Source: an uncultured Spirochaetaceae bacterium (lineage in GTDB: Bacteria; Spirochaetota; Spirochaetia; SZUA-6; DRHE01). From it: a stretch of 64,000 nt of DNA. Within the stretch, counting starts at the first letter, position 1. Each line of letters starts with the position of its first letter. Positions 10,800 through 58,406 of this stretch are shown in pieces. The notes under the pieces are model-generated. The model saw only the letters and a program-made list of their open reading frames with translations. It was not told where the DNA came from and did no database searches. The stretch spans positions 16,218-80,217 of the forward strand of contig CAZPPB010000002.1 in assembly GCA_964588355.1 (NCBI GenBank), written 5' to 3'. The position numbers and the translations under genes were made by a program.

Positions 10800-10987
10800 A
10801 GGGAGTATGGCCTGCTTCATCGCCCTCCCGCTGTTCACTCCGGCCTGCCCGTCGGGATCGCCCCCTCGGGGGGGGGCGGTCCTCTTCGTTTCCAGAGCTT
10901 CTTTCGTGACCCTGCTTCTGAACTGCCTCATAGAGGCGCCCCTGTTCGGGCGCAGCTGCGGGGCCGCAGAAATAGTGCGGATAGGAC

Positions 10988-26285: not shown

Positions 26286-26293
26286 GGGACCTC

Positions 26294-27430: not shown

Positions 27431-27506
27431 TGGGGAAACCTCATTTGGTGATTAAAGAGTAAGCAGGCATGGACGGCTCGTCGAACCGTCCATGCCCGAG
27501 AGTACG

Positions 27507-34486: not shown

Positions 34487-36316
34487 ATGGCAGTTAACAC
34501 ACCTGCGGATCTCGTGGGCGGTCGGAAATTTCAGTTTGCCGCCGCTAAGCTCCGCAATCGTCCTGACATCCTGCTGGCTCTTTTATTCCTGGTCGTGCTG
34601 TCGTTTCTGGTCATCGCACCTCTGGTTCAGATCATCTACACGTCTGTGATCTATCAGAGCAACGATCTGCGGGTCGTTCGGGACGCGCGAGCCGGTCAGT
34701 TCACCCTGTACCATTATGCCAGGATTTTCAGCGGGCGCCTGGCCCGCTCGATCTTCTATAAGCCGTTTGTAAACAGCCTGATCGTCGGATTCGGGGTTAC
34801 TCTGTTCGCCATGACTATCGGGGCGCTGCTGGCCTGGGTCCTGGTACGCACCGACATCCACCTCAAGGGTTTTTTCAACTCCGTGATCGTCATCCCCTAC
34901 ATGATGCCATCCTGGGTTATCGCCCTTGCCTGGCTGATCTTCTTCAAAAACGATCGCATAGCGGGCCAGCAGGGAATGCTACAACAGCTGCTGGGGGTGG
35001 GACCTCCGGATTGGTTTTCTTACGGGCTGCTGCCGATCATCATCTGTCTCGGCCTGCACTACTATTCATACTCGTTCCTGCTGGTTTCCGGGGCTCTCAG
35101 AACCGTAGACTCAGAGCTGGAGGAGGCGGGAGCGATCGCCGGACTTTCCAGATCCGCCATACTGCGAAAGATCACGCTTCCGATCGTACTGCCGGCACTC
35201 AGCTCCTCCTTCATTCTCACCTTCACCCGTAGCATGGGAACCTTCGGCACTCCTGCTCTGTTGGGGTTGCCGGTGCGCTTCTTCACTATTCCCACCCGGA
35301 TCTATGCATCGATCAACTCTCGAAACATGGGCGATGCATTTGTGCTGGCGTTGGTGCTGGTGCTGCTGGCTTCTGTGGCCATTTACATCAACAGTCGCAT
35401 CATCGGTATCCGCCGGAGCTTCGTAACGATGCGGGGTAAAGGATTCCGCAGCCATCCGACCAGGCTTGGTGCTCTGCGTGTTCCGCTGACGATCATCGTG
35501 CTCGTATTCCTGCTGGTGGCGGTGTTTCTGCCGGTGGTGATCCTGGGCTACAGCACCTTCATGCTTCTCCCCGGAGACTACTCGTTCTCCAATCTCACCC
35601 TCCATTTCTGGGTTGGGGAAAGCGATTTCAGGATAGCCAGCGGTCAGGAGGGTATCCTGCGCAACGACGGGATCGGCAGGGGCGTATGGAACAGCGTCCG
35701 CCTGGGCGTGCTGGCAGCAGCAATCAACGGGGTCATCGGTCTTCTCATCGGATATTCGGTGGTGCGCAGCCGGGGCCGTCCCCTGTCCAAACTGCTGGAG
35801 GCCGTGTCTTTTGCCCCCTATGTGTTTCCTAGCATTGCTATGGGAGCGATCTACCTGGGTATGTTCGCCCGTCCCCTCGGGCCGATCCCCGCTCTATACG
35901 GAACCTTCGTGCTCCTGGTGCTTATTGTGGTGGTCAAGAATCTGCCCTTCTCTTCACGGTCGGGGATCAGCGCCATGCTGCAGATCGACAAGTCCCTGGA
36001 GGAGAGCGCCCGTATCCATGGGCTCCCCTGGTTCAAGCGTTTTCGAAAAATCATCTTTCCTCTGGCTAGAAGCGGGTTCGTTTCGGGAATGATCCTGACT
36101 TTCATCACCGCCATGAGAGAGCTTTCCCTTTTGATCCTCCTGGTCACACCCGCCACCCGGGTACTCACCTCGGTGATTTTCGAGTACGAGAGCCAGGATC
36201 AGACCCAGCACGCCAATGGGGTCACCCTGATCCTGCTCGCCATTATCGTAGTCGCGAGTCTAGTGGTTCGGCGTTTTTTCGGTCAACGAAGCCTGTCAGG
36301 CTTGAGAGATTCCTGA
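34487..36316 (+). CDS. ABC transporter permease, fused two-domain FbpB/AfuB type
   Basis: 609 aa with two permease repeats (EEAGAIAGLSRSAILRKITLP.. and EESARIHGLPWFKRFRKIIFP). Confidence 0.85.
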   Translation: MAVNTPADLVGGRKFQFAAAKLRNRPDILLALLFLVVLSFLVIAPLVQIIYTSVIYQSNDLRVVRDARAGQFTLYHYARIFSGRLARSIFYKPFVNSLIVGFGVTLFAMTIGALLAWVLVRTDIHLKGFFNSVIVIPYMMPSWVIALAWLIFFKNDRIAGQQGMLQQLLGVGPPDWFSYGLLPIIICLGLHYYSYSFLLVSGALRTVDSELEEAGAIAGLSRSAILRKITLPIVLPALSSSFILTFTRSMGTFGTPALLGLPVRFFTIPTRIYASINSRNMGDAFVLALVLVLLASVAIYINSRIIGIRRSFVTMRGKGFRSHPTRLGALRVPLTIIVLVFLLVAVFLPVVILGYSTFMLLPGDYSFSNLTLHFWVGESDFRIASGQEGILRNDGIGRGVWNSVRLGVLAAAINGVIGLLIGYSVVRSRGRPLSKLLEAVSFAPYVFPSIAMGAIYLGMFARPLGPIPALYGTFVLLVLIVVVKNLPFSSRSGISAMLQIDKSLEESARIHGLPWFKRFRKIIFPLARSGFVSGMILTFITAMRELSLLILLVTPATRVLTSVIFEYESQDQTQHANGVTLILLAIIVVASLVVRRFFGQRSLSGLRDS

Positions 36317-36355
36317 TGCGTCGCATCGGAAAAAAACTTTACTAAGGAGTTCGAT

Positions 36356-37618
36356 ATGAAAACGAAGTATTTGACTCTATCCATTTTGTTCCTTTTCATC
36401 CTTTTGGCCGTCCTTGGCTGCGGCGAAGGCCGTAAGGAGGCGGTTCCGAATGTGTATTCGCCGGAAACGGTGCAGTGGCTCCGGTCGGCGAAGCTGGATG
36501 CCTTTGAGGACAGTCCCCAGGATTGGGCGGAAATCGAGCGTTTGGCCAAGGAGGAGGGACGTGTGGTAGTCTACTCCTCCTCATCCCGGATCGCCAATGT
36601 GGCCGAAGCTTTCGAGGCCACCTATCCGGAAATTACACTCGAGGGCTACGACCTGGGATCGGTGCAGACCCTGGAAAAAACGATCCGGGAGCAGGAAGCC
36701 GGTGTTTACAACGCCGACATCATCACAACCGGTGGATCCGGGCAGGTTATCTACGAGCTGCTGGCCAATCACCGGATCGTGAATTTCGTTCCCGACACGG
36801 TGGGTGATCAGATTTCCGAAGAGATGAAGGATCCTCTTCTGGTCCGCATCAACGAGGCGATCGTCTTCTTCTACAACAGGGAGGCCTATCCCGACGCCCC
36901 GCCGATCGAAAATATCTGGGCGCTCACAACCGAAGAATGGCGAGGGAAAGTTGTGCTTAAAAATCCCCTGGAATCGGAATCCGTGTTCATGGGGGTCTGC
37001 ACCCTGGTCGAACATGCAGATGAGATGGAAGCGGCATACGAGCGCTTCGCCGGCAAGAAGCTCGAGCTCAGTCCCGATGTTCCCGACGCCGGTTATGAGT
37101 TTCTTTACCGCCTGTTGAAAAATGACTTGATCCTTCTCTCCTCAGGCAGCAAGTCCGCCGAAGCTTCCGGCCAGACGGGCCAGCCGGATCCCCCGATCAG
37201 CATCGGGTCCTTCACCTATATCCGCTACAATGACACGAAGGGATTTGCCAATGAGGTATTTCGGGATCTGGACCCTGTTTCCGGCGTGATCTATCCCACC
37301 TACACGGGAATCGCTGCGTATGCGCCCCATCCGAACGCGGCAAAGCTGCTCACAGCCTTCCTGCTTGGATCTCCGGAGATCAATCCGAATTCGGTGATCG
37401 AGGAACCCTACACGGAGGGCGAGAGTGTAGAGCTGCTTCAGGGTTTGGCTCCCTACTACGAGATGGGTTCCCAGAGCCCGAGGAAGGACGTGCCTCCGCC
37501 GGCGGGTGGAGAGATCTGGGACGAGGTAGCTTCCAATTGCTGGACCGTCAGTCCGGAGTTCATGTGGTATGAGGCTCCGAATGTGCAGGATTTCTGGGTC
37601 CAGGAGTCGGCCCAATAG
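36356..37618 (+). CDS. ABC transporter substrate-binding lipoprotein (FbpA/AfuA family)
   Basis: Lipoprotein signal LAVLGCGEG, AAGGAG RBS; SBP fold. Confidence 0.8.
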   Translation: MKTKYLTLSILFLFILLAVLGCGEGRKEAVPNVYSPETVQWLRSAKLDAFEDSPQDWAEIERLAKEEGRVVVYSSSSRIANVAEAFEATYPEITLEGYDLGSVQTLEKTIREQEAGVYNADIITTGGSGQVIYELLANHRIVNFVPDTVGDQISEEMKDPLLVRINEAIVFFYNREAYPDAPPIENIWALTTEEWRGKVVLKNPLESESVFMGVCTLVEHADEMEAAYERFAGKKLELSPDVPDAGYEFLYRLLKNDLILLSSGSKSAEASGQTGQPDPPISIGSFTYIRYNDTKGFANEVFRDLDPVSGVIYPTYTGIAAYAPHPNAAKLLTAFLLGSPEINPNSVIEEPYTEGESVELLQGLAPYYEMGSQSPRKDVPPPAGGEIWDEVASNCWTVSPEFMWYEAPNVQDFWVQESAQ

Positions 37619-37629
37619 GTGAGGGGCGT

Positions 37630-38721
37630 TTGAGCAGCATCGTTCTACAAGACATCAGTAAATCGTACGGCGGGGTAACCGCCGTACGAAATCTTTCTCT
37701 TCATATCGCCGAAGGCCAGTTCGTGACCCTTCTGGGTCCTTCCGGATGCGGCAAGACTACCACTCTGCGAGTCATCGCCGGTCTGGAGGAACCCGACACA
37801 GGGGAGGTGCTAATAGGTGAACGGCTGCTGTTTTCCCGCTCCAGGGGGGTGTTCATCCCCCCTGAAAAGAGGGGACTGGGGCTGATCTTCCAGAGCTATG
37901 CCCTCTGGCCGCACATGACGGTCCGACGCAACATCGCCTTAGGGCTGGAGCAGCAGCGCCTCGCCAAGGATGTCGTACAAAAGAGGGTACAATCGGCACT
38001 GGAAAAGGTTCATCTGACCGGCTACGAAGAGCGGTACCCGTCGGAACTATCCGGCGGTCAGCAGCAGAGGGTGGCGGTAGCCCGGATGGTGGCCGCTGAA
38101 CCGGAGATCTTTCTAATGGACGAACCCCTTTCCAACCTCGACGCCATGCTGCGCATCGACATGCGGGCGGAGCTCAAGCGCTTGCATCACGAGCTGGAAG
38201 CGACCACTGTCTACGTTACCCATGACCAGGTGGAAGCCCTGACCTTGTCGGACCTGATCGCGGTCATGGACTCCGGGGTTGTCCGGCAGATCGGCACGCC
38301 CGAGGATATCTACAAGCGGCCTGAGGACCTGTTCGTAGCCCGCTTCGTGGGCAGTCCCCGGATCAACACGGTAACGGGGCGTATCGTGAGTGAAGACGGT
38401 CGAAGCCAATTTACCGCCGGGCAGCTGTCGATCCCCGTTCAGCCCGATCGATCATTCCCGGGGGAACAGATAGTTGCGGCAGTGCGCCCCGAAGACATCG
38501 AGGTTTCCGGAAAACCGGTGGAGGGGTGGTTGGAATGCAGGGCTTACTCGATCCTTCCGGTGGGCTCGGAAACGATCATCAACGTGCAGTCCTCCGACTT
38601 TTCCCTGTCTGTAAAAGTGAATGGTTTCTCCGATATACAGATGGATGACCCGGTCTGGGTGCAGCTGAATGAATCTGCTGTGAATTTTTACGACAGCCGA
38701 GACGAGCAGCGCATCCCCTGA
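37630..38721 (+). CDS. ABC transporter ATP-binding protein (FbpC/AfuC/PotA type)
   Basis: LLGPSGCGKTT, LSGGQQQRVAVARM, FLMDEPLSNLD; TTG start. Confidence 0.9.
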   Translation: MSSIVLQDISKSYGGVTAVRNLSLHIAEGQFVTLLGPSGCGKTTTLRVIAGLEEPDTGEVLIGERLLFSRSRGVFIPPEKRGLGLIFQSYALWPHMTVRRNIALGLEQQRLAKDVVQKRVQSALEKVHLTGYEERYPSELSGGQQQRVAVARMVAAEPEIFLMDEPLSNLDAMLRIDMRAELKRLHHELEATTVYVTHDQVEALTLSDLIAVMDSGVVRQIGTPEDIYKRPEDLFVARFVGSPRINTVTGRIVSEDGRSQFTAGQLSIPVQPDRSFPGEQIVAAVRPEDIEVSGKPVEGWLECRAYSILPVGSETIINVQSSDFSLSVKVNGFSDIQMDDPVWVQLNESAVNFYDSRDEQRIP

Positions 38722-38879: not shown

Positions 38880-39500
38880 CTAACCTGTTTTAATCATGAT
38901 GTCTGAAATAATGTTCGCCGCTTCGTCGCAGTTGTCCGCCGATCGATTCAGGTGGCGGTAGATCTCCCGCATCTTCAGCATATAGCCTGGGGTGTGCTCG
39001 GGATTGTCGAATAATTCCGCCAGAGCCTTGAGATAGATATGATGGATCTGGTTCTCTGTAGCCTTGGCCCGCTTGGCATGCTCCAAAGCCACGGCAGGGT
39101 ACTGCTTCATGTTCTTCAGTGCATCGTAGATTTCCAGCGTACCTTTTTCCAAAACCTTCGCCATGGCAATCAGGTCGTCGTCGGGCTGCACGTTGAAGAT
39201 GTTGAGTTCCTCCACCGTCCTCTGGGCGGCATCTATGATCTCATCCACGGCTCTGGACAGTGCGTAGATATCCTCTCGATCGAAGGGTGTTACGAGAGTT
39301 CGGTTCAGGCGATCTATCAGGATTCTTCTCAGGTCATCCGCCTCCCTTTCCAGAAAGTAGACCCGTTCCGAGGCCTCCCCATTGCCTGATTCCAGGCCGC
39401 GAACCAGGATTTTGTAGGCATCGTAAACCGTCTTGGCGTGATCGACGAGGAGTTGATAGAAATCCGTTTTCTTGTCCTTGCGGAACAGAGACATTTTCAT
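38880..39500 (-). CDS. DUF47-family protein (PhoU-like, PiT-associated)
   Basis: 206 aa; N-terminal LF.kdKk.dFyqLL..ha pattern typical of DUF47; adjacent to PiT. Confidence 0.7.
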   Translation of the reverse strand: MKMSLFRKDKKTDFYQLLVDHAKTVYDAYKILVRGLESGNGEASERVYFLEREADDLRRILIDRLNRTLVTPFDREDIYALSRAVDEIIDAAQRTVEELNIFNVQPDDDLIAMAKVLEKGTLEIYDALKNMKQYPAVALEHAKRAKATENQIHHIYLKALAELFDNPEHTPGYMLKMREIYRHLNRSADNCDEAANIISDIMIKTG

Positions 39501-41134: not shown

Positions 41135-41170
41135 TCCTCTTTTCTCCTCTCGTGTATGGAAAATTATGAA

Positions 41171-41185
41171 GCAATACATGTGCCA
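41171..41185 (-). promoter_or_regulatory. sigma-54 (-24/-12) promoter: TGGCAC-N5-TTGC
   Basis: Minus-strand sequence CTGGCACATGTATTGCT matches TGGCACG-N4-TTGCW with exact GG..GC spacing; 35 nt upstream of the DUF47-PiT start codon. Confidence 0.6.
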
Positions 41186-41287
41186 GATTGTGACATCGAT
41201 GAAACGAATAGGACCCAAATGCTTTGGTTATAAAGAAATGAGAAAGAAGGCGATCGACGGAAGTGAGGTGGTGAAAGCAGTCGAAGC

Positions 41288-41324
41288 GTAAAGGAACTGT
41301 ACAGTCCTCGTACAGTTCCTTTAC
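41288..41324. promoter_or_regulatory. 15-bp perfect inverted repeat (GTAAAGGAACTGTAC-N7-GTACAGTTCCTTTAC)
   Basis: Read directly; overlaps the stop codon of the NtrC-type gene and lies ~120 bp upstream of the sigma-54 -24 element; could be a terminator hairpin, an enhancer site for a bacterial enhancer-binding protein (bEBP), or both. Confidence 0.6.
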
Positions 41325-42706
41325 GGCTGCTTGATCTGCGAAAGTCTGCGCTGGAGGGTGACCCGGCTTATACCCAGCCGATCGGCAACCGCGGTCTTGT
41401 TGCCTCCCAACTTGATCATAAGCTTCTCGATCAGCAGCGGTTCGACACCCTTGTATAGTAGTTCGAGGAGCCCTTTCCGATCCGTGTGTTTTTTTAGAAA
41501 TTCGTCGGTAAATTCGGAAAACAGATCGATCTGTTCGCTGTTTGCGCTCAAATACCGGGGTATCTCGGCAGCCTGTATGATCCCGCTCTGGCAGTTGATC
41601 CCCAGGCTCAGGATGACGTTTTCCAGCTCCCGGATGTTCCCCGGCCATGGGTAGCGCTCCAGGATAGACTGAGCCTCTCGAGTGATCCCACTCAGGTTCT
41701 TGTTCAGTTTGCTGGCGGCAACCTTGATGAAGTGCTCTACTAGCAGGGGAATGTCGTTCCTGCGCTCCCGCAGCGGCGGCACATCTATGGAAGCGACATT
41801 GATTCGGTAGTAGAGATCTTCCCGGAATTTGCCGTTCTTGACCAGCGTCAAGAGGTTTCTGTTGGTAGCGGTGATGACCCTGGCATTGAGGGTGATATTG
41901 CGCGTTCCTCCCAGTCTTTGGAACTCCCGCTCCTGGAGGACGCGAAGTAGCTTTGTCTGAATGGCCAAAGGAAGATCACTGATCTCGTCAAGAAAGATCG
42001 TTCCCTCCGCCGCCGCCTCGAATTTGCCTGCCTGCCTCGATGTGGCCCCGGTGTATGCCTGAGGTTCGTGTCCGAAAAGCTCATTTTCCAGAAGCGTCTC
42101 CGGCAGAGCGGAACAGTTCACGGCGATGAACGGTTCGCTGCTCCGGTTGCCGTTGAAGTGCAGTGCCCTGGCGATAAGCTCTTTGCCCGTTCCGCTTTCT
42201 CCGGTTATCAGAACGTTGATGTCATTGTTGACGAGTCGGCCGATTGCTTTGAATACGTTCTGCATGACTTCGGATTTACCGACCACCCGGGTCAGGTTGT
42301 AGGCCCGCTGTTGTTCATCCCGCAACACCCGCACGTAATGACGCATCTTCCTCGACTCTATCACTCTGCGGGTGATGATTTTTATCTTCTCGATATCCAG
42401 AGGTTTTTCCAGGTAGTCACATGCCCCCAGTGCAATAGAATAGACGATGGTCTCCAGGCTCCCGTAAGCCGTGATCATCACGATATCCGCATCCTGTGCC
42501 TTTGATCGGATCGTCTTCAGCACCGAGAGGCCGTCTTCGCCCGGAAGCCGGTAGTCCAGGAAAACGAGCTGCACCTCGTTTTCCTGCAGCAGTTTCTGTG
42601 CTTCCTTGCCGTTGTACGCTCCGAGAATGGTGTGCTCACCTCGGAACAGAGCCGAAAAACTCAGAAAAACACTGCGGTCGTCGTCTATAACAAGAATCGT
42701 CGCCAA
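41321..42706 (-). CDS. sigma-54-dependent response regulator (NtrC family: REC-AAA+-Fis HTH)
   Basis: Receiver ILVIDDD..LVFLDYRLPGEDG; AAA+ GESGTGKE, GAFTGA-like region, ESELFGHE; C-terminal HTH. Confidence 0.9.
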   Translation of the reverse strand: MATILVIDDDRSVFLSFSALFRGEHTILGAYNGKEAQKLLQENEVQLVFLDYRLPGEDGLSVLKTIRSKAQDADIVMITAYGSLETIVYSIALGACDYLEKPLDIEKIKIITRRVIESRKMRHYVRVLRDEQQRAYNLTRVVGKSEVMQNVFKAIGRLVNNDINVLITGESGTGKELIARALHFNGNRSSEPFIAVNCSALPETLLENELFGHEPQAYTGATSRQAGKFEAAAEGTIFLDEISDLPLAIQTKLLRVLQEREFQRLGGTRNITLNARVITATNRNLLTLVKNGKFREDLYYRINVASIDVPPLRERRNDIPLLVEHFIKVAASKLNKNLSGITREAQSILERYPWPGNIRELENVILSLGINCQSGIIQAAEIPRYLSANSEQIDLFSEFTDEFLKKHTDRKGLLELLYKGVEPLLIEKLMIKLGGNKTAVADRLGISRVTLQRRLSQIKQP

Positions 42707-42735: not shown

Positions 42736-44565
42736 CTACAGCGTGTGTATTCTCTGTTCGAGATCCTCCGGAATGGTGATCGAGAAACAGGTCTGTGCCT
42801 TGCTGCTGCGAACCTCCACCTTGCCGAAATGCCGCTCCACGATCATCTTCACGATCGCCAGCCCCAGCCCCGTGCCTTCTTTCTTGGTGGTGAAGAAGGG
42901 TTCGAAAATCATGCCGAGATTTTCCGTCAAGATCTCCTGCCCATCATCGCAGAAACAGAACATGACCCCGCCGTCGCGGCGGTGCTCAGATGTCACCTCC
43001 AGTGTACCGCCCTGCGGCATCGCCTGGATGGCGTTCAGTACCAGATTCATAACCATGAGTTTGAATTTTTCGCGGTCCAGGAACAGGGCAGGGATCGATC
43101 TGTCCAGCTTTACGATGACTTTTATATTCTGATGTTCCGTGTTATACCGAAACAGGTTAAGGATCTCCTCCACGATCTCGCCGGAATTGTGGCGACCGAA
43201 GCGCATGGGGCTGGGCCGGGCAAACTCGAGCAAATCCTTGATCAGGTCATTCAGCCTTTCGGTTTCTGCAAGAATCGTTAGTATCTCTCCTTGGCCTTTC
43301 GCGTTTGTGAGGTATCTTTCGCGGAGAATCTGAGCCATCATCTTGATCGAGCTCAAAGGGTTGCGGATCTCGTGGGCCAAGCCGGCTGCCATCTGCCCCG
43401 CAGTGGCCAGCTTGGCCGATTTGATCATGTTGTCCTGCAGTTCCAGGATGCGTTGATTGTACAAGCTCAATTTTCGCACAAGGCGATTGAAACTGTCGGA
43501 AATCAGCCCGAACTCGTCCTTGCTGGCCAATTCGATTCGAGTGTCGAATCTGTCTATGTTCAAGCCGTCCATGCCCGCAAGGATCTTCACCAGGGAAGTG
43601 TTGATGTTCCTCGCCAGTAACACGTAGATTATAAAAGCAAGAAGCACTCCTATTCCGATCATCAGATACAGCAGGTTCTGCGAGTAACGCAGGTATCTCT
43701 TTTCCTCCTGCTGGGATACCCCCAGGCTGAGAGCTCCCCAGTACGAGTTTAAATCGAGGAACAGAGGCTTGAGCAGAAAGTATGATGGTTCCTGGTTGAG
43801 TTGGACGTTCTTGAGGAACACTGTTTGATCGGAGGTCAACCGGGACACGACCTCCTCCGGTAGCTGATCGTAGCCCTGATAGGTGGAGACAACCTTCCCG
43901 TAGCCCTGGTAAATCCCATTCTCCATACCGGTCAGAAGCTTGATATGTTCTGCGAAATCAGTTGAGAACGACGATCCGATCATTAGCAGGCCCAGAATTT
44001 CACCCCCGCTTTCGATCGGGGAAACGGCCCGTATGGCCACTCCGGACTGACCCTGCTCGTAGCTGACTGCGCTCCTACCGGCCAGCCCTTGCTTCACGAT
44101 TTCCTGATTGATCTTCACGTCGCCGGTAGCCTCGGGTTGGTGCCCTCTAAGAATTACCTTGCCGGCGGTGTCCTCGATCTCGATGATGTCGAAGATGCCC
44201 AAGCGGTGGTAATGCACCAGCTGATTCTCCAGGGGATCGAACCGCCCCTCGGCCAGCAGGGCAACGAGGTTCCGGTCCGAGGACAGCTCTTCAGCGATTG
44301 TAAGACATTGCTCTTCCATGAAACGCACTTCCTGGGAATAGGCGGTGATGCTGTTGGCTAGGCGGATGCGGATTTCCCGGTCGATTGTGTTGCGAATGAT
44401 CAGGTACCCGAGCAAGAGCGCACTGATCGTGGTAATGAAGATAATCAGCATGAAGGAGAAGAAGATCTTGAAATTCAAGCGGTATTGAAAGAAACGCAGC
44501 ATGTTCAACCGGCCGATTCGCTTTCTGGTCAAAGTATAAGGGTGAAGCCCTTTTCTTAGAAGCAC
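42736..44565 (-). CDS. sensor histidine kinase (two TM helices, periplasmic sensing domain, HAMP, HisKA, HATPase)
   Basis: H-box LAHEIRNPLSSI, N-box LVLNAIQAM, G-boxes DDGQEI, GTGLGLAIV; start may be at internal Met (MLRFFQ.., 44502). Confidence 0.85.
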   Translation of the reverse strand: MLLRKGLHPYTLTRKRIGRLNMLRFFQYRLNFKIFFSFMLIIFITTISALLLGYLIIRNTIDREIRIRLANSITAYSQEVRFMEEQCLTIAEELSSDRNLVALLAEGRFDPLENQLVHYHRLGIFDIIEIEDTAGKVILRGHQPEATGDVKINQEIVKQGLAGRSAVSYEQGQSGVAIRAVSPIESGGEILGLLMIGSSFSTDFAEHIKLLTGMENGIYQGYGKVVSTYQGYDQLPEEVVSRLTSDQTVFLKNVQLNQEPSYFLLKPLFLDLNSYWGALSLGVSQQEEKRYLRYSQNLLYLMIGIGVLLAFIIYVLLARNINTSLVKILAGMDGLNIDRFDTRIELASKDEFGLISDSFNRLVRKLSLYNQRILELQDNMIKSAKLATAGQMAAGLAHEIRNPLSSIKMMAQILRERYLTNAKGQGEILTILAETERLNDLIKDLLEFARPSPMRFGRHNSGEIVEEILNLFRYNTEHQNIKVIVKLDRSIPALFLDREKFKLMVMNLVLNAIQAMPQGGTLEVTSEHRRDGGVMFCFCDDGQEILTENLGMIFEPFFTTKKEGTGLGLAIVKMIVERHFGKVEVRSSKAQTCFSITIPEDLEQRIHTL

Positions 44566-44899
44566 AAGGAAGTATCTTTATTAGAAATTCGAGCAATGCC
44601 GTGGTGCGGACGGGGATCGGGATGAGTGCAGTTTTCCCCTTATTCTCTCTCTATTTTGCCCCATAATTGTCCTTGACATCCGGCCTGCACCTGCTTACTA
44701 ATTGGGAAGGAGACAGAGAGATGCGCTCCCTGAGTCTGTTGGCCGAAAAGCGGGGGGGGCGGCATCATTCCGGCGCCTCTGAACAAAGAGGTTGAAGCTC
44801 TCCAACGCCGTCTTAGGGGGACGATCCCCGGTCTGTTTTCGCGGAAAACGACCTGCGCGTCTACGGTACTATCACAGCATATCGGCACAGGGGGTAACG

Positions 44900-46096
44900 A
44901 TGAGTGAAACAATGAAAGCCGTCCGGCTCTATGCGGATTGGGATCCCAAACCGGATTTCAAACTGGGGGCGAAAGACATCGACAAGAAGCAGACCTATCT
45001 GGGAAGCAAGGTCTGGCGCAATCCCAGAATGAAGATCGAAGAGGTCCCGGTGCCCAAACCCGGACCGGGGCAGGTCCTGGTCCAGGTCAAGGCCTGCGGC
45101 ATCTGCGGAAGCGACGTACACATGGCTCAGGCGGATGCGGAGGGCTACATCTGGTACCCCGGACTGACCGGCTTCCCCTGCACCCTCGGCCATGAGATGT
45201 CCGGAGTGGTCGTGGAGGGAGGTCCCGGAGCTCTGGACAAGAAAACCAACAGACCCTTCAGAGGCGGGGAATGGGTATGCGTGGAAGAGATGATCTGGTG
45301 CGGGTCCTGTCGGCCCTGTGCGGACGGCTGGCCGAACCATTGCGAACGGCTGGACGAGATCGGCTTCAATGTAGACGGGGCGTTCACCCGCTACGTGGTG
45401 CTGCCTGCGCGGGTCCTGTGGAGCCTTGATCCCCTGCGGGAAACACACAGTGACCAGGATGTGTTCAAACTCGGCAGCATGGTGGAGCCGACCAGCGTGG
45501 CCTACAATGCGGTGATCGAGCGCGGAGGCGGAGTGCGGCCGGGAGACAATGTGGTGATCCTGGGGGGCGGCCCCGTTGGGCTGGCGGCCTGTGCCGTGTT
45601 GAAGCGAAACGGTGCTGCCAATGTGATCATCTCCGAGCCGGAGGAGGGGAGGGCGGAGATCGCCCGCAAGCTTGGCGCCGATCATGTAATCAACCCGAAG
45701 AAGGAGAGTATGGCTGATCGGGTGCTGGAGATCACCCACGGGATGGGGGCGTCGATCTACCTGGAGGCGACCGGTCTTCCGACCATAGTATACCCTGAAA
45801 TCGAGCGCTGTATCTGGGAAGGACGTACCTTGAACAGTACGGTCGTTGTGGTGGCCAGAGCGGATGCCAAGATTCCGGTCACCGGAGAGGTGCTCCAGGT
45901 ACGCCGGGCACGGATTGTCGGTTCACAAGGGCACTCGGGTCACGGCACCTTCCCCCGTGTTATCGCCTCGATGGCCGCCGGAATGAACATGCTTCCCATG
46001 ATGACCAAGACCATCGGATTGGATGAGGTTCCCAAGCACATAGAGATTCTGCGCACCGACAGACGTGAGGCCAAGATCACCTGTCTGATGGATTAG
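44900..46096 (+). CDS. zinc-binding medium-chain alcohol/polyol dehydrogenase
   Basis: GHEMSGVVVEGG (catalytic Zn region), C..C..C..C structural Zn cysteines (CGSCRPCADGWPNHC), Rossmann GGGPVGLAA; ATG 44900 after GGGGG. Confidence 0.8.
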   Translation: MSETMKAVRLYADWDPKPDFKLGAKDIDKKQTYLGSKVWRNPRMKIEEVPVPKPGPGQVLVQVKACGICGSDVHMAQADAEGYIWYPGLTGFPCTLGHEMSGVVVEGGPGALDKKTNRPFRGGEWVCVEEMIWCGSCRPCADGWPNHCERLDEIGFNVDGAFTRYVVLPARVLWSLDPLRETHSDQDVFKLGSMVEPTSVAYNAVIERGGGVRPGDNVVILGGGPVGLAACAVLKRNGAANVIISEPEEGRAEIARKLGADHVINPKKESMADRVLEITHGMGASIYLEATGLPTIVYPEIERCIWEGRTLNSTVVVVARADAKIPVTGEVLQVRRARIVGSQGHSGHGTFPRVIASMAAGMNMLPMMTKTIGLDEVPKHIEILRTDRREAKITCLMD

Positions 46097-46111
46097 GAGG
46101 CAGCCAGGCTT

Positions 46112-46750
46112 ATGTTGTGGAAAAAAGAGAAATCGATCATCGACAAAATAAAAACCTACCTCGATCAAGTGGACAGGTGCCGTAATAGCTTTCGTGAGTG
46201 CATCGAGAAACTGATTTTCGACCCTGAAAACAAGGAAAACCCGGCGATCGTCGAAGAGGTGCATCGATCGGAGTCCAAAGCCGACGATCTGCGCAGGACT
46301 GTCGAGCTCCAGTTGTACGAACGGGCTTTGATACCCGAATCCAGGGGGGATGTACTGGGTCTGCTGGAAACCATGGATGCGATCCCGGGTCTGTTTCAAT
46401 CTCTTTGCTATCAATTTCTGCTGGAAAAGATCGTTATTCCCGACAGGTTCAGGGAACGCTACCTGCACCTGGTGGATCTCAATCTCAAATCCTACGATCT
46501 GGTACGGGAGGCGGTGCTGGGTCTGTTTTACAACAAGGACGTCAAGGCTCAGACGGACCTGGTGGACGCTGTGGAAAGTGATTCCGACCACGCAGAGCGG
46601 AATCTGATCCGGGACATATTCAGCAGCAAGCTTGACAAAGCGGACAAAATATTACTGAAGGAAATCGTGATCAACACGGGAGACATTTCCGATCAGGCGG
46701 AGACTGTTAAAGACAGGTTGATTCTCGCCATCATCAAGCGGAAGATCTGA
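46112..46750 (+). CDS. DUF47-family protein (third copy)
   Basis: 212 aa, DUF47-like N-terminus, immediately upstream of second PiT gene. Confidence 0.65.
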   Translation: MLWKKEKSIIDKIKTYLDQVDRCRNSFRECIEKLIFDPENKENPAIVEEVHRSESKADDLRRTVELQLYERALIPESRGDVLGLLETMDAIPGLFQSLCYQFLLEKIVIPDRFRERYLHLVDLNLKSYDLVREAVLGLFYNKDVKAQTDLVDAVESDSDHAERNLIRDIFSSKLDKADKILLKEIVINTGDISDQAETVKDRLILAIIKRKI

Positions 46751-46753
46751 TAG

Positions 46754-47680
46754 ATGTACCGGCTGCTCAGCGGGGTCTTCTTGGGCTGGTCTCTTGGCGC
46801 CAACAATTCCGCCAATAACTTCGGAACCGCCGTGTACTCGCAAAAGATCCGCTATCGAACCGCGGTCATACTCTGCGCCGTTTTCGTGATCGTCGGAGCG
46901 CTGTTGGAAGGGCAGGCCGGGATGCACACCCTGGGCGGCCTGGTGGAACAGACCGCGGACAGCGCATTTGCAGCCACCCTGGCCGCGGCCCTGACCGCTA
47001 CACTCATGAGCGTCCTGAAACTGCCGGTCTCAACCTCCCAGGCCATGGTCGGGGCGATAATCGGCATCGGCATCCTTCGGGGTGAGGTAAATTTCAGCGG
47101 ATTGACCAAGGTTATGATCGCCTGGGTTGCTACGCCGGTAGGTACGATCATAGCCACCCTGATCCTCTATCCTCTGATCGGCTGGTTTCTGCGCCTGCTT
47201 CGCTTCAACATCTTTACCCGGGACCTGGTTCTCAAGTGGGGTCTGATAATCGCCGGCTGCTACGGTTCTTACGCCCTGGGAGCCAACAACGTGGCCAACG
47301 TGACCGGGTTGTACACCCAGACCGGACAACTTACGGTGTTTCAGGCCACTCTATTGGGAGGTGTAAGCATTGCCCTAGGCGCACTGACTTACAGCAGAAA
47401 TGTGATGATCACCGTTGGCAAGAAGCTTGTCAGCCTTGATCCTTTTAGTGCCTTTATCGCGGTTTTTTCTATGGCCGTAATCGTCCACGGTTTCGCGATC
47501 ATCGGCGTGCCGGTTTCCACATCCCAGGGGATTGTCGGCTCGGTGCTGGGAATCGGGATTCTAAAAGGGGTGCAGACTATCAAGATACGCACGCTTATAA
47601 TGATTCTGTTCGGCTGGATCGGGACGCCGTCGATCGCTCTGGTCCTCGCCTACCTCATGTTCCGGTTCGTGTATCTTTGA
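46754..47680 (+). CDS. inorganic phosphate transporter, PiT family (short form)
   Basis: N-terminal GWSLGANNSANNFGTAVYS PiT signature, ~8-9 TM, 308 aa. Confidence 0.8.
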   Translation: MYRLLSGVFLGWSLGANNSANNFGTAVYSQKIRYRTAVILCAVFVIVGALLEGQAGMHTLGGLVEQTADSAFAATLAAALTATLMSVLKLPVSTSQAMVGAIIGIGILRGEVNFSGLTKVMIAWVATPVGTIIATLILYPLIGWFLRLLRFNIFTRDLVLKWGLIIAGCYGSYALGANNVANVTGLYTQTGQLTVFQATLLGGVSIALGALTYSRNVMITVGKKLVSLDPFSAFIAVFSMAVIVHGFAIIGVPVSTSQGIVGSVLGIGILKGVQTIKIRTLIMILFGWIGTPSIALVLAYLMFRFVYL

Positions 47681-47693
47681 TCCATTGTTGCAG

Positions 47694-48170
47694 ATGCCCT
47701 TCCGGCCAAGCCCTGTGGGAAGATTCCCCGCGATATTGCACTATCTTCAGCTTGTTCGGATAATGCTATGGAGTGTGTACGACCTGGGGGCGGAGATCGG
47801 CGGTTATCTGGCGCGCAGGGCTGTGGAGGCCCTCGGGGTTAAACCTGCGGATGTCCAAAGCTACGGCAAAGGTGCCATTGTGGGGGTCGATGGCGAGATC
47901 GAACATGCCGCCGCCATTCTCCACCCCAGATTCGGCAAGCCCGTACGCGCAGCCGTGGAGAAGGGTGATGATATCATCCCCTCCACGAAGAAAATGGGCG
48001 GAGCCGGCGCTTCCATCACCATGCCGCTTACGAACAAGGACAGCATCTGGAGTTTTGACCATATGGACGCGGCGGAAATCAGCATACCCGATGCACCGCG
48101 TCCGGATGAAATCGTCGTGGCCGTGGTGGTCGCAGACCGCGGACGCCCGCTGGCCCGTGTGTCCACTTGA
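47694..48170 (+). CDS. amino-acid-synthesis-family-like protein (PF06684-like), N-terminally short
   Basis: YGKGAIVGVDGEIEHAAAILHP..IPDAPRPDEIVVAVVVADRGRPLARV matches my recollection of the family core; lacks the usual first ~50 residues. Confidence 0.5.
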   Translation: MPFRPSPVGRFPAILHYLQLVRIMLWSVYDLGAEIGGYLARRAVEALGVKPADVQSYGKGAIVGVDGEIEHAAAILHPRFGKPVRAAVEKGDDIIPSTKKMGGAGASITMPLTNKDSIWSFDHMDAAEISIPDAPRPDEIVVAVVVADRGRPLARVST

Positions 48171-48611: not shown

Positions 48612-51185
48612 TCATTGCTCTGCCGGCAGTACACCACCTGCACTAGCCCAGTCCGGCGGAAGTGTACCTATACGAGAAATACGGTTAAAAATTTCCTCTG
48701 CTTCTTTCTTTTTACCGGCACGCGTGAGAAGTGTCGACAGGTCGGTAAGGTAGCCGACGGTATTTTCATGATCCGGACCGTCTGTACGTTCCTGGAACGC
48801 CAGGGCGTTGCGAAGAAGGCCTTCCGCTTCATCGTATTGTTCGAGTCCCACCAGCAACATGGCCAGGGTGTGAGTTGCCGCCACGGTTGAGGAGTTGTCC
48901 GATTCAAAAGCTTTTGAGTAGATCGATACCGAGCGGCGGGCGAGCGGCTCTCCTTCACGATAACGGCCGGACAAATATAGATCCCAGGCCACATTGTTTA
49001 GAAATTGGCCCATTTCGGCAAGGTTGTCGTCGGCGGTGAAAGCCAATTCCGCCCGGTCCAGATAATTGGCAGCCAGATTTTGATGCCCGAAAATGATGTA
49101 AAGTGCTCCGATGGATGCTATGGTCTCGGTATATTCGGGATCCTCGGGATCGAGGGACTCGGCGAAGCGGGTAAACAAATTGAGTTCATCCTCAGCTCTT
49201 TTCATGTCTCCGGAGCCGTAGAAACCGGTGATGCGATCGAAGAACCCGCTCGCTATCTGTGCCGTGTCGAATGACCTGATATCTCGCTGGAGGTCCTCAG
49301 GGAAATGGAAAGAGCGGAGGAGATCGAAGCAAAGTTCAGATTCTGAATGATTCTTTATAGAGGCACATTGGAGCAACCATAACTGATTGTCCCGAAACAG
49401 ATATACTTGAGTAAGCCGCATAGTCATCTGTTGGTTATCGACGTTAAACTTGATCCATTCGCCGGGAACTGAATCAATAGTTACGTCTTCCCGGGACACA
49501 ACCTCGGTTCCGGACATTGCACTTTTCATCGCTTCGACTAACATGGTTACAAACCATGTGGACACAGCGTTACTCGGAACGGGGATCAACACGACAGTGA
49601 TATTCGGATCGTAGCCAAAGCCCGTCCACAGCCCGCCTCCGAATTGTACGGTTACCTCAGGACCCATGGTCTGTTGAAAGAGCTCCGTGTCCACCGTCCA
49701 CCCCTCAGGGGCGAAACCGAAGTATTTTCTCCATTGTCGTACGGTTTCCGGATCATCGACTTTTTTCCCCTGCTGCTCGAGTGTTTCAGTTTCCGCATCC
49801 GGGCTTTGATCCTTCATTATGAAGGTCTGCGCGACCAGTTCAGGGGATGCTTCATCGATCTCGATTATATATCCCCCTGTCCAGTATCCTTCAGCATCCG
49901 ACACGGCAAGCGTGTGCTTTCCGGCCTTTGTCGCCTGGAAGGTAAGCCTGGAATTGAGGCCGAGGACTCCGCCTCCGCTGTCGTCATCCTCCACAGGAGT
50001 CGATACTCCGGCCATATCGATGCAGACATAAGGATCGATCATCACTGATTCAACCTCTACGGTCACCTTTTGGCCTTGCTGCAGGTCGATCACGAACCAA
50101 TCGTAGTCAAACGGAAAGTCCAGGTTGGCCGTGTAAGAATGTCCGACTTCCAGCTCCCGTGCATCGTCGGGATCTGATATCCGGGCCAGCGGTTGGTTGC
50201 TTTCAAGAAGGACTTCGCCCCTGCCCTCAACCATGGGTTCGACCATGACGTAATGAAAATCCTGCTGGGATTCTAAATAAAGGGTTTCGGTCATTCCTCC
50301 TTCAAGGTCGTCAGCTGAACCGAGGGTGTCGCCGTATCGATCGAGAATATACAATGCAATGTCCAGGTCACTTTGTGCCGTAAGGTCAATGGCTGAACCC
50401 GGAGCAGTCACCGCTACGTACACTCCTGTGTCCCAAACATTCTCGAGTGTGAACTCTTGAGTGGTACTCCCCTCCCCATACGAGAGCTCTCTGAGATCTA
50501 ATCCGGTCACATCGACGCCCGAGGTCATCTGCTCCAGCCTTTGCAGGACATCCTCAGCCGACGCTGCAAGTGCGAAGTTGTTCCCGGCCATCGACAGGCT
50601 CGAGATCCCGATGACTTCACCGCGGTCGGTGGCCAGCACGCCACCGCTCTGCCCGCCTGCGATCGCCGCATCCGTTTGGAAAAAGGTTAATTCAATCCTC
50701 GTCCACTCGCGAATACGTGAGAGAATGCCCCGTGTTATGGTGGGCTCAGGGAATGCCTCGGTCTCGACCGGATAGCCGATGAGATATACATCGCTGCCGA
50801 TTTCCACATTTTCCCGAGGCACAAAGGTGATAGCCGCAACATCAATGGCGACTGGACCGAGCAGAGCGAGATCCCCGATCAGATCGATGAAGGCGACGGG
50901 TACCTTCTGAAGTGCCGTGCCCTCGGCAAAGGTCACTCCGACCTCCGAGTATGGCCAAACAACATGGGCGTTGGTCAGAATATAACCATCGTCCATCAAT
51001 GTGCCGCTTCCGGAGCCCAAAGGTGTATACACGAAGGCCAGGGAAGGGCTGATTCGATCGTAAACCTCTTTCGCACTCAACAGCGGCAGAATATCGCTGT
51101 CCGTTCGGCTGAGCGTTGTTGTGCAACCGATGGTCAGGACGAAAAGAGTACAAGCACAAAGGAGTTTAACGATACCTCTATACAT
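48612..51185 (-). CDS. large lipoprotein with trypsin-like (S1) serine protease domain and C-terminal TPR repeats
   Basis: Signal/lipobox LTIGC; ILTNAHVV (His), GGQSGGVL (Ser) in N-terminal ~250 aa; C-terminal ~250 aa with TPR-like helical repeats (YDEAEGLLRNALAF..). Confidence 0.7.
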   Translation of the reverse strand: MYRGIVKLLCACTLFVLTIGCTTTLSRTDSDILPLLSAKEVYDRISPSLAFVYTPLGSGSGTLMDDGYILTNAHVVWPYSEVGVTFAEGTALQKVPVAFIDLIGDLALLGPVAIDVAAITFVPRENVEIGSDVYLIGYPVETEAFPEPTITRGILSRIREWTRIELTFFQTDAAIAGGQSGGVLATDRGEVIGISSLSMAGNNFALAASAEDVLQRLEQMTSGVDVTGLDLRELSYGEGSTTQEFTLENVWDTGVYVAVTAPGSAIDLTAQSDLDIALYILDRYGDTLGSADDLEGGMTETLYLESQQDFHYVMVEPMVEGRGEVLLESNQPLARISDPDDARELEVGHSYTANLDFPFDYDWFVIDLQQGQKVTVEVESVMIDPYVCIDMAGVSTPVEDDDSGGGVLGLNSRLTFQATKAGKHTLAVSDAEGYWTGGYIIEIDEASPELVAQTFIMKDQSPDAETETLEQQGKKVDDPETVRQWRKYFGFAPEGWTVDTELFQQTMGPEVTVQFGGGLWTGFGYDPNITVVLIPVPSNAVSTWFVTMLVEAMKSAMSGTEVVSREDVTIDSVPGEWIKFNVDNQQMTMRLTQVYLFRDNQLWLLQCASIKNHSESELCFDLLRSFHFPEDLQRDIRSFDTAQIASGFFDRITGFYGSGDMKRAEDELNLFTRFAESLDPEDPEYTETIASIGALYIIFGHQNLAANYLDRAELAFTADDNLAEMGQFLNNVAWDLYLSGRYREGEPLARRSVSIYSKAFESDNSSTVAATHTLAMLLVGLEQYDEAEGLLRNALAFQERTDGPDHENTVGYLTDLSTLLTRAGKKKEAEEIFNRISRIGTLPPDWASAGGVLPAEQ

Positions 51186-51561
51186 AACATTTACCTCCTA
51201 TCTCCATACCCGGACAGGCCAGTTTGAGAGACAGCAGACGGCGTCTGAATCAGCATCGAATACCCCAAGAGCAAAGACATGGTAATTCGAACTCCTTATC
51301 TGTTGTTATTGGTATTCCCTATCGGCCGACTCATCCGTAACCGTCCTCAATCTGAAGTAAGCAATTCTTATGCCATTCCTATGATTCAGTATAATTACTT
51401 AGGATGGAGATAATTAACTATTGCGTATACTTATGGGTCCGCAAGCTTCTGCAGTTTTTGTTGCGGATCTTTGGCAATGAAGTTACGCTGTACCACCTGT
51501 GACAAGACACCGGTTCTCTGGGAGGAATCGTGCTGCCCGAGCCGTTGCTCTGGTACTCGCC

Positions 51562-53257: not shown

Positions 53258-54346
53258 CTAGTCCTCCGCCGGCAGAATGTGAAGGCTCTTCTCCTTGAGA
53301 AGGATCGTCACCTCCTGATCGGTTGTGAAGAGGGTGTGCTCGCGGGGGTTGGGGACCTTAACGGTGATGAGCCTGTCTTCCAGTTCGACTTCATATACGA
53401 TCTCCGAGCCCAGGTATACCGATTCCTTGATCACTCCGGTGAGCCCCTTCCGCCTCTTCGATTCCAGTGCTACGGATTCGGGGCGGACCACGACGACCAC
53501 TTTCATACCCTCCACAAGGCTCTCCGTTACTGCGGACACCTTCAGCTTCGTTCCGTGCATATCCACTGTGGCGCTTGCCGGTGAGTCGATGGATGTGATC
53601 GTGGCCTCGAGGAAATTGGCTTTGCCTATAAAGTCTGCAACGAAGCGATTGGCCGGGTGGGCGTAGATTTCCGACGGGGTGCCGATCTGCTGAATTCGAC
53701 CTTCGTGCATGATCACGACCCTGTCGGACAGGGTCATGGCCTCCTCTTGGTCGTGAGTCACATAAACCGATGTGATGCCGACCCTGCGCTGGAGCTTGCG
53801 GATCTCGATGCGGGTGGATTCCCGCAGCTTGGCGTCGAGATTGGAAAGTGGCTCGTCCAGGAGAAGGACCTTGGGTTCCATGATCAACGAACGAGCCAGA
53901 CTGACCCGCTGCTGCTGGCCCCCGGACAGCTGTGCCGGGGAGCGGTTGCCCATCCCTTTCAGCCCCACCAGGCGCATCACTTCTTCGACTCGTTCTTTGA
54001 TTTGTTTACCGCTCACCCGATGGATCTTCAATCCGTATTGGATATTCTGAGCGACCGTCATGTGCGGGAACAGGGCGTAATTCTGAAACACCATGGTGGT
54101 GGGACGGCGGTTGGGCGGGACGTCGTTCAACCGTTCCCCATCCAGGTAGATGTCTCCGGAAGTCGGAAATTCGAAGCCCGCTATCATCCTCAGCGTGGTG
54201 GTCTTACCGCAGCCCGAAGGACCCAGCAGCGTGACCAATTCGCCTTCCTGCACCTGCAGGCTGACCTGATCCACCGCCACCACGGATTCCTTCGCGCCGC
54301 CGAATACCTTCACCAGATGGTTCAGTACCAGATAGTCATCCCTCAT
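53258..54346 (-). CDS. ABC transporter ATP-binding protein (FbpC/AfuC/PotA type)
   Basis: LLGPSGCGKTT, LSGGQQQRVSLARSL, LLLDEPLSNLD. Confidence 0.9.
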   Translation of the reverse strand: MRDDYLVLNHLVKVFGGAKESVVAVDQVSLQVQEGELVTLLGPSGCGKTTTLRMIAGFEFPTSGDIYLDGERLNDVPPNRRPTTMVFQNYALFPHMTVAQNIQYGLKIHRVSGKQIKERVEEVMRLVGLKGMGNRSPAQLSGGQQQRVSLARSLIMEPKVLLLDEPLSNLDAKLRESTRIEIRKLQRRVGITSVYVTHDQEEAMTLSDRVVIMHEGRIQQIGTPSEIYAHPANRFVADFIGKANFLEATITSIDSPASATVDMHGTKLKVSAVTESLVEGMKVVVVVRPESVALESKRRKGLTGVIKESVYLGSEIVYEVELEDRLITVKVPNPREHTLFTTDQEVTILLKEKSLHILPAED

Positions 54347-54356
54347 ACGCCACTCC

Positions 54357-56069: not shown

Positions 56070-56163
56070 CTCTTTCTGGATGCCTCCTCGGATTATAGAG
56101 AAAAATCCCCACCCCTCAAAGGGTGAGGGGCGGGGAGATCTGTCTAAGTGGTATGGTCGCCGA

Positions 56164-58257: not shown

Positions 58258-58406
58258 CTGGTAAATCTTCACCGGGTATTATCAGATCTGCACGACCTGA
58301 CCGGAATGACTCTTTAGATACATTCATCGTGAAGCTCAGGCCGATCGAATCTGTGTCTTTCGGCGCACTTGATCGTATCGTTACGGGTCTATACCGCTTC
58401 AGAAAA

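Follow-up and report, generated by a model that had tools for sequence, protein, structure and literature searches.

The question raised by this locus, located in a 64-kb window (the whole stretch of DNA that was analyzed) from an uncultured Spirochaetaceae bacterium, is whether an operon coding for a transporter of the PiT family is controlled by the sensor histidine kinase and the NtrC-type response regulator whose genes precede it on the minus strand. The preliminary description of the sequence had proposed this control, to be exerted through a -24/-12 promoter of the sigma-54 type. The positions that it gave for a palindrome, for the -24/-12 element and for an AGGAG ribosome-binding site were confirmed in the minus-strand sequence (Table 1), and its overall interpretation was supported by the conservation of the promoter, the spacing of the dyads and the gene order in relatives. 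As judged from the sequence, it is quite probable that in this locus a two-component system switches on an operon for phosphate transport in a sigma-54-dependent manner.

In the mechanism that we propose, the membrane kinase, with its periplasmic dCache_3 sensor, would phosphorylate the regulator at D51. The activated regulator would oligomerise on two dyads (GTAMAG-N3-CTKTAC, at about -158 and -136) which begin inside its own stop codon, the DNA would form a loop, probably bent at a conserved block around -78, and the AAA+ domain of the regulator, driven by ATP, would remodel the complex of RNA polymerase and sigma-54 at TGGCAC-N5-TTGC (41185-41171). Transcription from about position 41159 would then read, as one operon, the genes for a 203-residue protein named X203, for a PitA-like PiT transporter (PiT1) and for a DUF47/PitR-like protein. 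By analogy with PhoU and PitR, the likeliest role of the two PhoU-fold proteins would be to gate PiT1, to inform the kinase of its flux, or to do both things.

About 30 related loci, designated by L numbers, were compared. They came from Spirochaetaceae and Spirochaetota metagenome-assembled genomes (MAGs), from metagenomes and from the cultured Spirochaeta isovalerica (GCA_014207565.1). The alignment of X203 retrieved 12 loci from GTDB (all of them in Spirochaetaceae, Spirochaetales or Spirochaetota MAGs) and 18 loci from Joint Genome Institute (JGI) metagenomes, and contigs were also fetched for five remote loci of the X203 family and for three loci found in the search with the sensor half of the kinase, one of them that of S. 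isovalerica (L040). The order kinase-activator-X203-PiT-DUF47 was kept in L001-L008, L012-L025, L029 and L035/L036, i.e. the synteny that the preliminary description had suggested comparing was conserved in relatives. The close homologues of X203 were about 50, all of them metagenomic or from Spirochaetaceae MAGs, and an exhaustive profile search among 1.84 billion proteins gave only 34 cluster representatives of this family. The search with the sensor half of the kinase gave 55 clusters, with identities down to 40%.

The three genes of the operon are tightly packed, with a 4-nt overlap between those of X203 and PiT1 and a 12-nt gap between those of PiT1 and the DUF47 protein. The preliminary description had read them as DUF47-PiT-DUF47. 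This was correct for the PiT gene (PHO4) and for the last gene (PhoU_div), but not for the first one, which matched no Pfam or NCBIfam family. At the ribosome-binding site, GAGAGGAG was invariant or almost so in nine aligned loci. Concerning the kinase, its true start is probably the ATG at 44502, which gives 588 residues, rather than position 44565, because the homologues are 588 residues long.

Table 1. Coordinates of the genes and sequence elements of the locus, as positions of the window.
Feature	Position	Strand	Description
Sensor histidine kinase	42736..44565	-	Two transmembrane segments flank periplasmic dCache_3; then HAMP, HisKA, HATPase_c (Pfam)
NtrC-type response regulator / bacterial enhancer-binding protein	41321..42706	-	REC, Sigma54_activat, HTH_8 (Pfam)
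Upstream activator site A (predicted)	41310..41324	-	GTAAAGGAACTGTAC, 15-bp dyad, contains the TAA of the regulator
Upstream activator site B (predicted)	41288..41302	-	GTACAGTTCCTTTAC, second 15-bp dyad
Conserved block resembling the integration host factor (IHF) consensus	41231..41243	-	TCTCATTTCTTTA; candidate DNA-bending site
Predicted sigma-54 promoter core	41171..41185	-	TGGCAC-ATGTA-TTGC; exact consensus and conservation
Ribosome-binding site AGAGGAG	41144..41150	-	9 nt ahead of the ATG at 41134; AGGAG itself at 41148-41144
X203, first operon gene, 203 aa	40523..41134	-	All-helical six-helix bundle (model); no annotated family
PitA-like PiT-family transporter (PiT1), 337 aa	39513..40526	-	Pfam PHO4
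DUF47/PhoU_div (PitR-type) accessory protein, 206 aa, last operon gene	38880..39500	-	Pfam PhoU_div

Concerning the substrate of the transporter, PiT1 matched PHO4 (PF01384) with 255.9 bits (cut-off 33.7) over profile positions 1-350 of 350, and the last protein of the operon matched PhoU_div with 66.4 bits (cut-off 24.4). The gene that follows X203 was a PiT gene in most loci. In L033/L034, two tandem X203 paralogues were followed by a Na_Pi_cotrans+PhoU protein, in L037 an X203 relative stood ahead of two Na/Pi cotransporter genes, and in L042 a 189-aa protein and a Na/Pi carrier, also of the Na_Pi_cotrans+PhoU type, were encoded divergently from the kinase. In S. isovalerica the order was H+-pyrophosphatase, kinase, activator, promoter, a 228-aa protein, Na_Pi_cotrans+PhoU and polyphosphate kinase, the 228-aa protein being the positional equivalent of X203, with no detectable homology to it. 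The occurrence of two unrelated families of phosphate carriers behind the same module points to phosphate rather than sulfate. Elsewhere in the 64-kb window no pst, phoBR or phoU genes were found.

In S. isovalerica, the region 10154-10879 of JACHGJ010000010.1 comprises TGGTATGATATTTGCA (10154) and the gene for the 228-aa protein. This gene was called with 185 aa, and an in-frame ATG with its own Shine-Dalgarno sequence occurs 129 nt earlier (10193), 39 nt after TGGTATGATATTTGCA. The gene probably starts there, which would give the 228-aa protein.

The switch could be real and yet serve something other than phosphate, if what the PiT carrier moves is sulfate, arsenate or a metal complex and an unrelated stimulus is sensed by the kinase. 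In agreement with this, PiT1 did not reach the NCBIfam cut-off for PitA and also matched, again below the cut-off, the model of the sulfate permease CysP (55 bits), the dCache_3 domain of the kinase has no assigned ligand, and in L041 the module occurs without any phosphate transporter. Such an explanation is nevertheless rather unlikely, considering that the kinase-activator and X203 families precede both PHO4 and Na_Pi_cotrans+PhoU carriers, that the module of S. isovalerica adjoins ppk and the H+-pyrophosphatase gene, and that both small proteins of the operon display the PhoU/PitR fold, in the case of X203 by prediction.

The upstream element that would be bound by the regulator is formed by GTAAAGGAACTGTAC-GAGGACT-GTACAGTTCCTTTAC (41324..41288, minus strand), in which two 15-bp arms, perfect inverted repeats of each other, flank 7 nt. 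Such a repeat is far beyond chance, and the TAA stop codon of the regulator (41323-41321) lies inside its first arm. Each 15-mer is itself a near-dyad, as GTAAAG-N3-CTGTAC equals GTAMAG-N3-CTKTAC. In a spacer alignment of nine sequences (the window and relatives), the hexamers GTAAAG, CTGTAC, GTACAG and CTTNAC were conserved, while the triplets between them varied freely. Within the spacer, conservation was highest at site A, with GTAAAG-N3-CT present in close and distant loci. The centers of sites A and B are at about -158 and -136, respectively, from the predicted start, i.e. the sites are 7 bp apart and separated by 22 bp from center to center. Two dimer sites about two helical turns apart are the usual layout for activators of the NtrC family.

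The same 15-7-15 layout recurred in L029 (GTACAGTTTCTTTCC-N7-GCACAGAATCTTTAC), L031 (GTAAAGATTCTGATC-N7-GCTAACAAACTGATC), L035 (GTAAAGAAACTGGCC-N7-GTTCACGATCTGAAC) and L042 (GTAAAGATATTTATC-N7-GATAACTAAATTATC), in which neither 15-mer is the inverted copy of the other, their arrangement being direct rather than inverted. The distance from GTAAAG to the predicted start was about 165 nt in the close group and about 152 nt in L009-L011, near-constant within each clade, and the spacer from the regulator to X203 varied from 179 to 302 bp while the distance between dyads and promoter held. The best reading of the palindrome is that of a DNA site composed of two 15-bp dyads, predicted to bind activator dimers, and not that of an RNA hairpin, because there was no covariation and no T-tract, the stability of the hairpin was lost in orthologues, and the distance to the promoter was constant. 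By the same sequence comparison, the perfect palindrome of the window and of L001 is a lineage-specific special case of the 15-7-15 layout. So, what is conserved is the pair of dyads and not the perfect palindrome of the preliminary description.

It could be argued that autoregulation is the main function of the dyads, as an operator where the bound regulator would be blocking read-through or modulating the 3′ end of its own mRNA, with downstream activation taking place via other sites. In favor of such a role, the element overlaps in most loci the stop codon of the regulator itself. However, the overlap was not kept in L007, L008, L010, L011 and L029, whereas the promoter distance was: the dyad motif remained in L007 and L008 with the stop codon elsewhere, and in L010 and L011, with spacers of 302 and 232 bp, it was well downstream of the stop. 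Moreover, the nine-sequence alignment displayed no other conserved dyad in the spacer through which activation could proceed. A mainly autoregulatory role seems therefore improbable, even if the two roles are not mutually exclusive.

Another possibility is that the palindrome works as RNA, in the form of a hairpin (an intrinsic terminator or a 3′ stabiliser) that ends the kinase-regulator transcript and takes no part in activation. When folded as RNA, the palindrome gave about -27 to -33 kcal/mol in the window (z = -6.5 at -33), a very stable hairpin whose place coincides with the 3′ end of the regulator gene. Across loci, however, the energy ranged from -27 kcal/mol (window and L001) to -4 kcal/mol in L004 and L008, where the stability was at background (z = -0.6 and -0.4, respectively). 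Pairing across the arms was 78.5%, compared to 77.6% in shuffles, with 173 of 500 shuffles reaching the observed value, and the three central pairs were broken, without compensation, in 5–6 of the nine sequences. In none of the nine aligned loci was the palindrome followed by a T-run, and the terminator scan of the window reported none there. The motif of L010 and L011 stands far past the stop yet at constant distance from the promoter, and the 15-mers of L029, L031, L035 and L042 are not mutually complementary. With all this, a hairpin function is very improbable. The intrinsic terminator in particular was rejected for the lack of a T-run and of compensatory changes and for the loss of stem stability in L004 and L008, and so the palindrome does not behave as the generic terminator that the preliminary description had considered as the outcome contrary to its proposal. 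No relevant Rfam family was found between 38700 and 44900.

A search for further copies of the palindrome, suggested in the same description, was run on the window and gave only two-mismatch matches of the dyad, at 16703, 17132 and 36328, which are not convincing. The last of these matches, GTAAAGTTTTTTTCC (36328-36342, minus strand), resembles the variant GTAAAGCTGCTTTCC of L010 and lies in a 39-bp gap between the gene of an ATP-binding cassette (ABC) permease and a 420-aa gene. It is probably due to chance.

The close loci also have in common CTCAATTCCTTATAA..AAAGGA, a conserved island that is located between the dyads and the promoter and occupies columns 105-131 of alignment A2. In the window, this block reads TCTCATTTCTTTA and has its center at about -78. 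Compared to the IHF consensus WATCAANNNNTTR, the block matched 7–9 of 9 positions in all close loci but L006, and the block of L003, TATCAATTCCTTA, matched 9/9. It seems reasonable to interpret that the -78 block probably bends the DNA by means of a bound protein, the binding of which is presumed from the consensus.

Concerning the promoter, TGGCAC-ATGTA-TTGC (41185..41171, minus strand), followed by T, matches the consensus at 10/10 specified bases, with GG at -25/-24 and GC at -13/-12. The 17-mer quoted in the preliminary description spans 41186..41170. The element is intergenic, correctly oriented and located 51 nt ahead of the ATG of X203, and the predicted transcription start would be near 41159, with a leader of about 25 nt. 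In the 64-kb window there was one exact match to the -24/-12 consensus, compared to about 0.12 expected by calculation.

A GG-N10-GC of the TGGCAC-N5-TTGC type was found 39–63 nt ahead of the first gene in L001-L025, L029, L031, L033, L035, L040 and L041 (about 25 distinct loci). The distance to the start codon was 49–52 nt in the close group, 39–40 nt in L009-L011 and S. isovalerica, and 46–63 nt in L029, L031, L033 and L035. The element was present in every locus with neighboring kinase and activator and with readable upstream DNA, except L042, which is the weakest case, with TGGTAT-N5-TTGT, i.e. with TTGT at -12. So, the lack of the element in orthologous loci, which had been raised as a possible argument against the promoter, was not observed but for this sole exception. 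In L009-L012, L029 and L033, X203 is 28–35% identical and the spacer is otherwise unalignable, yet the promoter element is kept. The chance of a one-mismatch match in a 100-nt stretch was calculated as about 0.003 per locus, and the independent repeats of the element at this rate exclude chance. As a co-occurrence control, although from a single locus, L037 has an X203 relative, no neighboring kinase or activator, and no GG-N10-GC.

A search of the window for other sites of this kind, also suggested in the preliminary description, gave no second exact copy but three other one-mismatch matches, at 26899, 34253 and 51375, a chance frequency. With one mismatch allowed, no such site was found upstream of the kinase gene. 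The match at 51375, TGGCATAAGAATTGC (51361-51375, minus strand), agrees with the consensus at 9/10 positions. The gene downstream of it, at a distance of 176 nt, codes for a trypsin-like peptidase/TPR protein of 857 aa (48612-51185).

Several observations weigh against a sigma-54-dependent phosphate switch. One-mismatch matches to the -24/-12 consensus were 4 in the window versus 3.3 expected from shuffles, which means that the consensus match alone is not significant and that its weight comes from position and conservation. Within the 64-kb window there was no open reading frame (ORF) for rpoN or with an RpoN box, and no second activator. The sigma-54 contact loop L1 of the regulator (residues 217-222; 42041-42058, minus strand) reads QAYTGA and not GAFTGA, and, with the T, G and A of TGA intact, its Gln at position 1 is outside the listed validated substitutions. 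In L010 and L011 the module contains X203 alone, with no transporter downstream, so a transporter is not its obligatory target, and in L041 an unrelated 247-aa gene stands behind the promoter. Finally, the PiT family includes sulfate permeases, so phosphate is a presumed substrate of PiT1.

The first two of these observations would fit a -24/-12 match due to chance, the operon being read through from the kinase-regulator genes or from an unrecognised sigma-70 promoter, but this is the least probable of the explanations considered here, as the loci with the activator alongside keep the element (L042 excepted), even where the spacers are unalignable, L037 lacks it, and the promoter scan gave no sigma-70-like site in the regulator-X203 spacer of the window.

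As to the contact loop, QA[YF]TGA was found in 20/20 orthologues examined, that of S. isovalerica included. The validated activators compiled by Francke et al. (PMC3162934) include Asn at loop position 1 and Tyr at position 3, and Gln at position 1 is not listed. By its conservation, Gln at this position is a mark of this clade of activators, and the unusual loop can be argued to be functional because the promoter downstream is conserved. With respect to the loci with no transporter, the gene order indicates that X203 or its positional equivalent, and not the carrier, is the most constant target of the module, which fits a PhoU-like feedback role. In L010, directly 3′ of the lone X203 gene, there is a cobalamin riboswitch (8764-8966; Rfam RF00174, 87 bits) followed by nrdD, which codes for an anaerobic ribonucleotide reductase.

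The domains of the regulator were all above the Pfam cut-offs (Sigma54_activat, 229.5 bits; Response_reg, 78 bits; HTH_8, 34 bits). The residues D51, T79 and K101 of the receiver (REC) domain, the Walker A motif GESGTGKE and a helix-turn-helix of the Fis type were recognized. On the other hand, the scores with NCBIfam models were all below the cut-offs: 433.8 against 558.6 for NtrC, 423.6 against 714 for AtoC, 346.3 against 760 for ZraR and 157.9 against 650 for PgtA. Being below the cut-off of the NtrC model, the regulator is not an NtrC equivalog. For the kinase core, the best-scoring models were AtoS (232 against 646) and ZraS (203 against 479), far below the cut-offs, and the match to PhoR (TIGR02966; 90.6 against 334.2) covered the kinase core only. 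No solved structural relative of the sensor domain of the kinase was found.

Concerning X203, it had no Pfam match even at E = 1 and no NCBIfam match, a profile search of the PDB was negative, and none of 10 remote members of the family matched DUF47/PhoU_div (PF01865). Compared to the neighboring DUF47 protein, the BLASTP result was not significant. The hhalign comparison, made with an alignment of DUF47, was weak (probability 7.7%), although colinear over 122 columns, with LPFYWEDM aligned with the DUF47 motif TPFDREDI. The AlphaFold2 model obtained with the family alignment was a six-helix bundle, predicted with confidence, with a predicted local distance difference test (pLDDT) of 87 and a predicted template modelling score (pTM) of 0.86. 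When this model was compared to the PDB with Foldseek, 3l39 came at the top (template modelling (TM) score 0.69, E 7e-4), followed by 4q25, 1t8b, 1t72, 2iiu and 2olt. The TM scores of 3l39, 4q25, 1t8b, 2iiu and 2olt were 0.56–0.69. A profile of the DUF47 proteins of the window matched 3l39 at 2e-22 and 2iiu/2olt at 2e-7, which makes these structures DUF47 relatives by sequence. So, X203 was rejected as a DUF47 protein recognizable by sequence, and only its predicted fold links it to PhoU/DUF47. On the basis of the model, it can be said that X203 represents a small, divergent family of PhoU/PitR fold, recognized by no library.

Some known systems bear a resemblance to this module. In the rhizobial DctB/DctD-dctA system, the substrates of which are C4-dicarboxylates, a periplasmic Cache-type kinase and an activator of the NtrC family act on dctA, which has a sigma-54 promoter with tandem upstream activator sites. 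The likeness consists in the position of kinase and activator genes beside a transporter gene and in the induction of the carrier by an external signal. On the other hand, dctA is divergent and lacks accessory genes of the PhoU-fold type, and the sensor found here is a dCache_3 domain. In the NtrB/NtrC system of Escherichia coli, an activator with REC, AAA+ and HTH_8 domains acts at glnAp2 from two adjacent dyads that lie over 100 bp ahead of a TGGCAC-N5-TTGC promoter. The domain set, the paired dyads and the type of promoter are as those found here, while the differences are the membrane location of the kinase (NtrB is cytoplasmic), the phosphate carriers as targets, the QAYTGA loop and the fact that the regulator is not an NtrC equivalog. 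Other systems of the NtrC family that switch on a neighboring transport or metabolic operon are PgtB/PgtA-pgtP of Salmonella, AtoS/AtoC and ZraS/ZraR, but the proteins of the window are far below all the curated cut-offs and are not members of them.

The preliminary description had considered that PiT transporters are usually constitutive and that sigma-54 control would be unusual. Pit genes are under the control of the Pho regulon in Sinorhizobium, E. coli (pitB) and Streptomyces, so the first statement was too general. As to the second one, the open-access text that was searched, papers on sigma-54 regulons included, contained no account of Pit or NptA being controlled by sigma-54, which is no proof of novelty. 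The mechanism itself is textbook, and what appears to be undescribed in this literature is the occurrence of PiT and Na/Pi carriers as its targets, the PhoU-fold X203 family and the clade of activators with the QA[FY]TGA loop.

Concerning PhoR/PhoB-PhoU and the PhoPR-PitR/NptA system of Staphylococcus aureus, the common trait is the pairing of importers with PhoU-fold accessories, adjacent or fused, which in those systems tune a two-component system. In S. aureus, PitR and the PhoU domain of NptA tune PhoPR (Vermilya et al., bioRxiv 10.1101/2025.09.08.674922). The regulators of these systems are, however, of the OmpR/PhoB type and work with sigma-70, whereas here there is a sigma-54 enhancer-binding protein and a kinase with a large periplasmic sensor. 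In the same study, PhoP/PhoR was not identified in the surveyed genomes of Spirochaetota. It is tempting to speculate, as a possibility rather than as an expectation, that the kinase-activator pair could be the phosphate-responsive system of Spirochaetota devoid of PhoR/PhoB, a sigma-54 counterpart of the Pho switch, and that X203 could be a fourth, hitherto unrecognised clade of PhoU-type accessory regulators, coupling the flux through PiT or NptA to the kinase.

What is known of how phosphate uptake is controlled comes almost entirely from PhoR/PhoB and PhoU, and the module described here is a conserved candidate for this function in Spirochaetota. Its presence in the cultured and sequenced S. 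isovalerica makes the prediction accessible to laboratory tests. Should the module prove responsive to phosphate, sigma-54 would join the routes of phosphate homeostasis and a new family of accessory proteins would be defined. If it does not, there is still a clean, conserved pair of activator site and promoter for an uncharacterised two-component system.

Turning to the neighborhood, the window contains a second, unrelated DUF47-PiT pair (46112-46750 and 46754-47680, plus strand), the PiT protein of which is 24% identical to PiT1. The pair follows a gene for scyllo-inosose 3-dehydrogenase (IolM, 515 bits, above the cut-off) and is followed by an AA_synth gene, all of them in a cluster (44792-48170) divergent from the kinase. 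No -24/-12 site was found in the spacer shared by both, and the arrangement recurs in L002, L003 and L033. Judging from this, the genome seems to hold one PiT inside the sigma-54 switch and one outside.

An ABC transporter encoded on the plus strand (34487-38721) converges on the PiT operon, and this adjacency is kept in L002, L004, L019 and L027. The best match of its fused permease was the putative 2-aminoethylphosphonate component PhnU2, and those of its ATPase were UgpC and PhnT2, all below the cut-offs. The 420-aa gene between the permease and the ATPase had no family match. This may be a phosphorus-related neighborhood. Three ABC systems of the same type occur in the window (24591-28487, 34487-38721 and 53258-57165), each with a fused double permease and an ATPase with a TOBE domain, to which a binding protein of the SBP_bac_8 family is added in two of them. 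Another observation concerns a 466-aa ORF (58242-59642, plus strand) with a Y2_Tnp putative transposase domain, which suggests that there is a mobile element close to the window's 3′ end.

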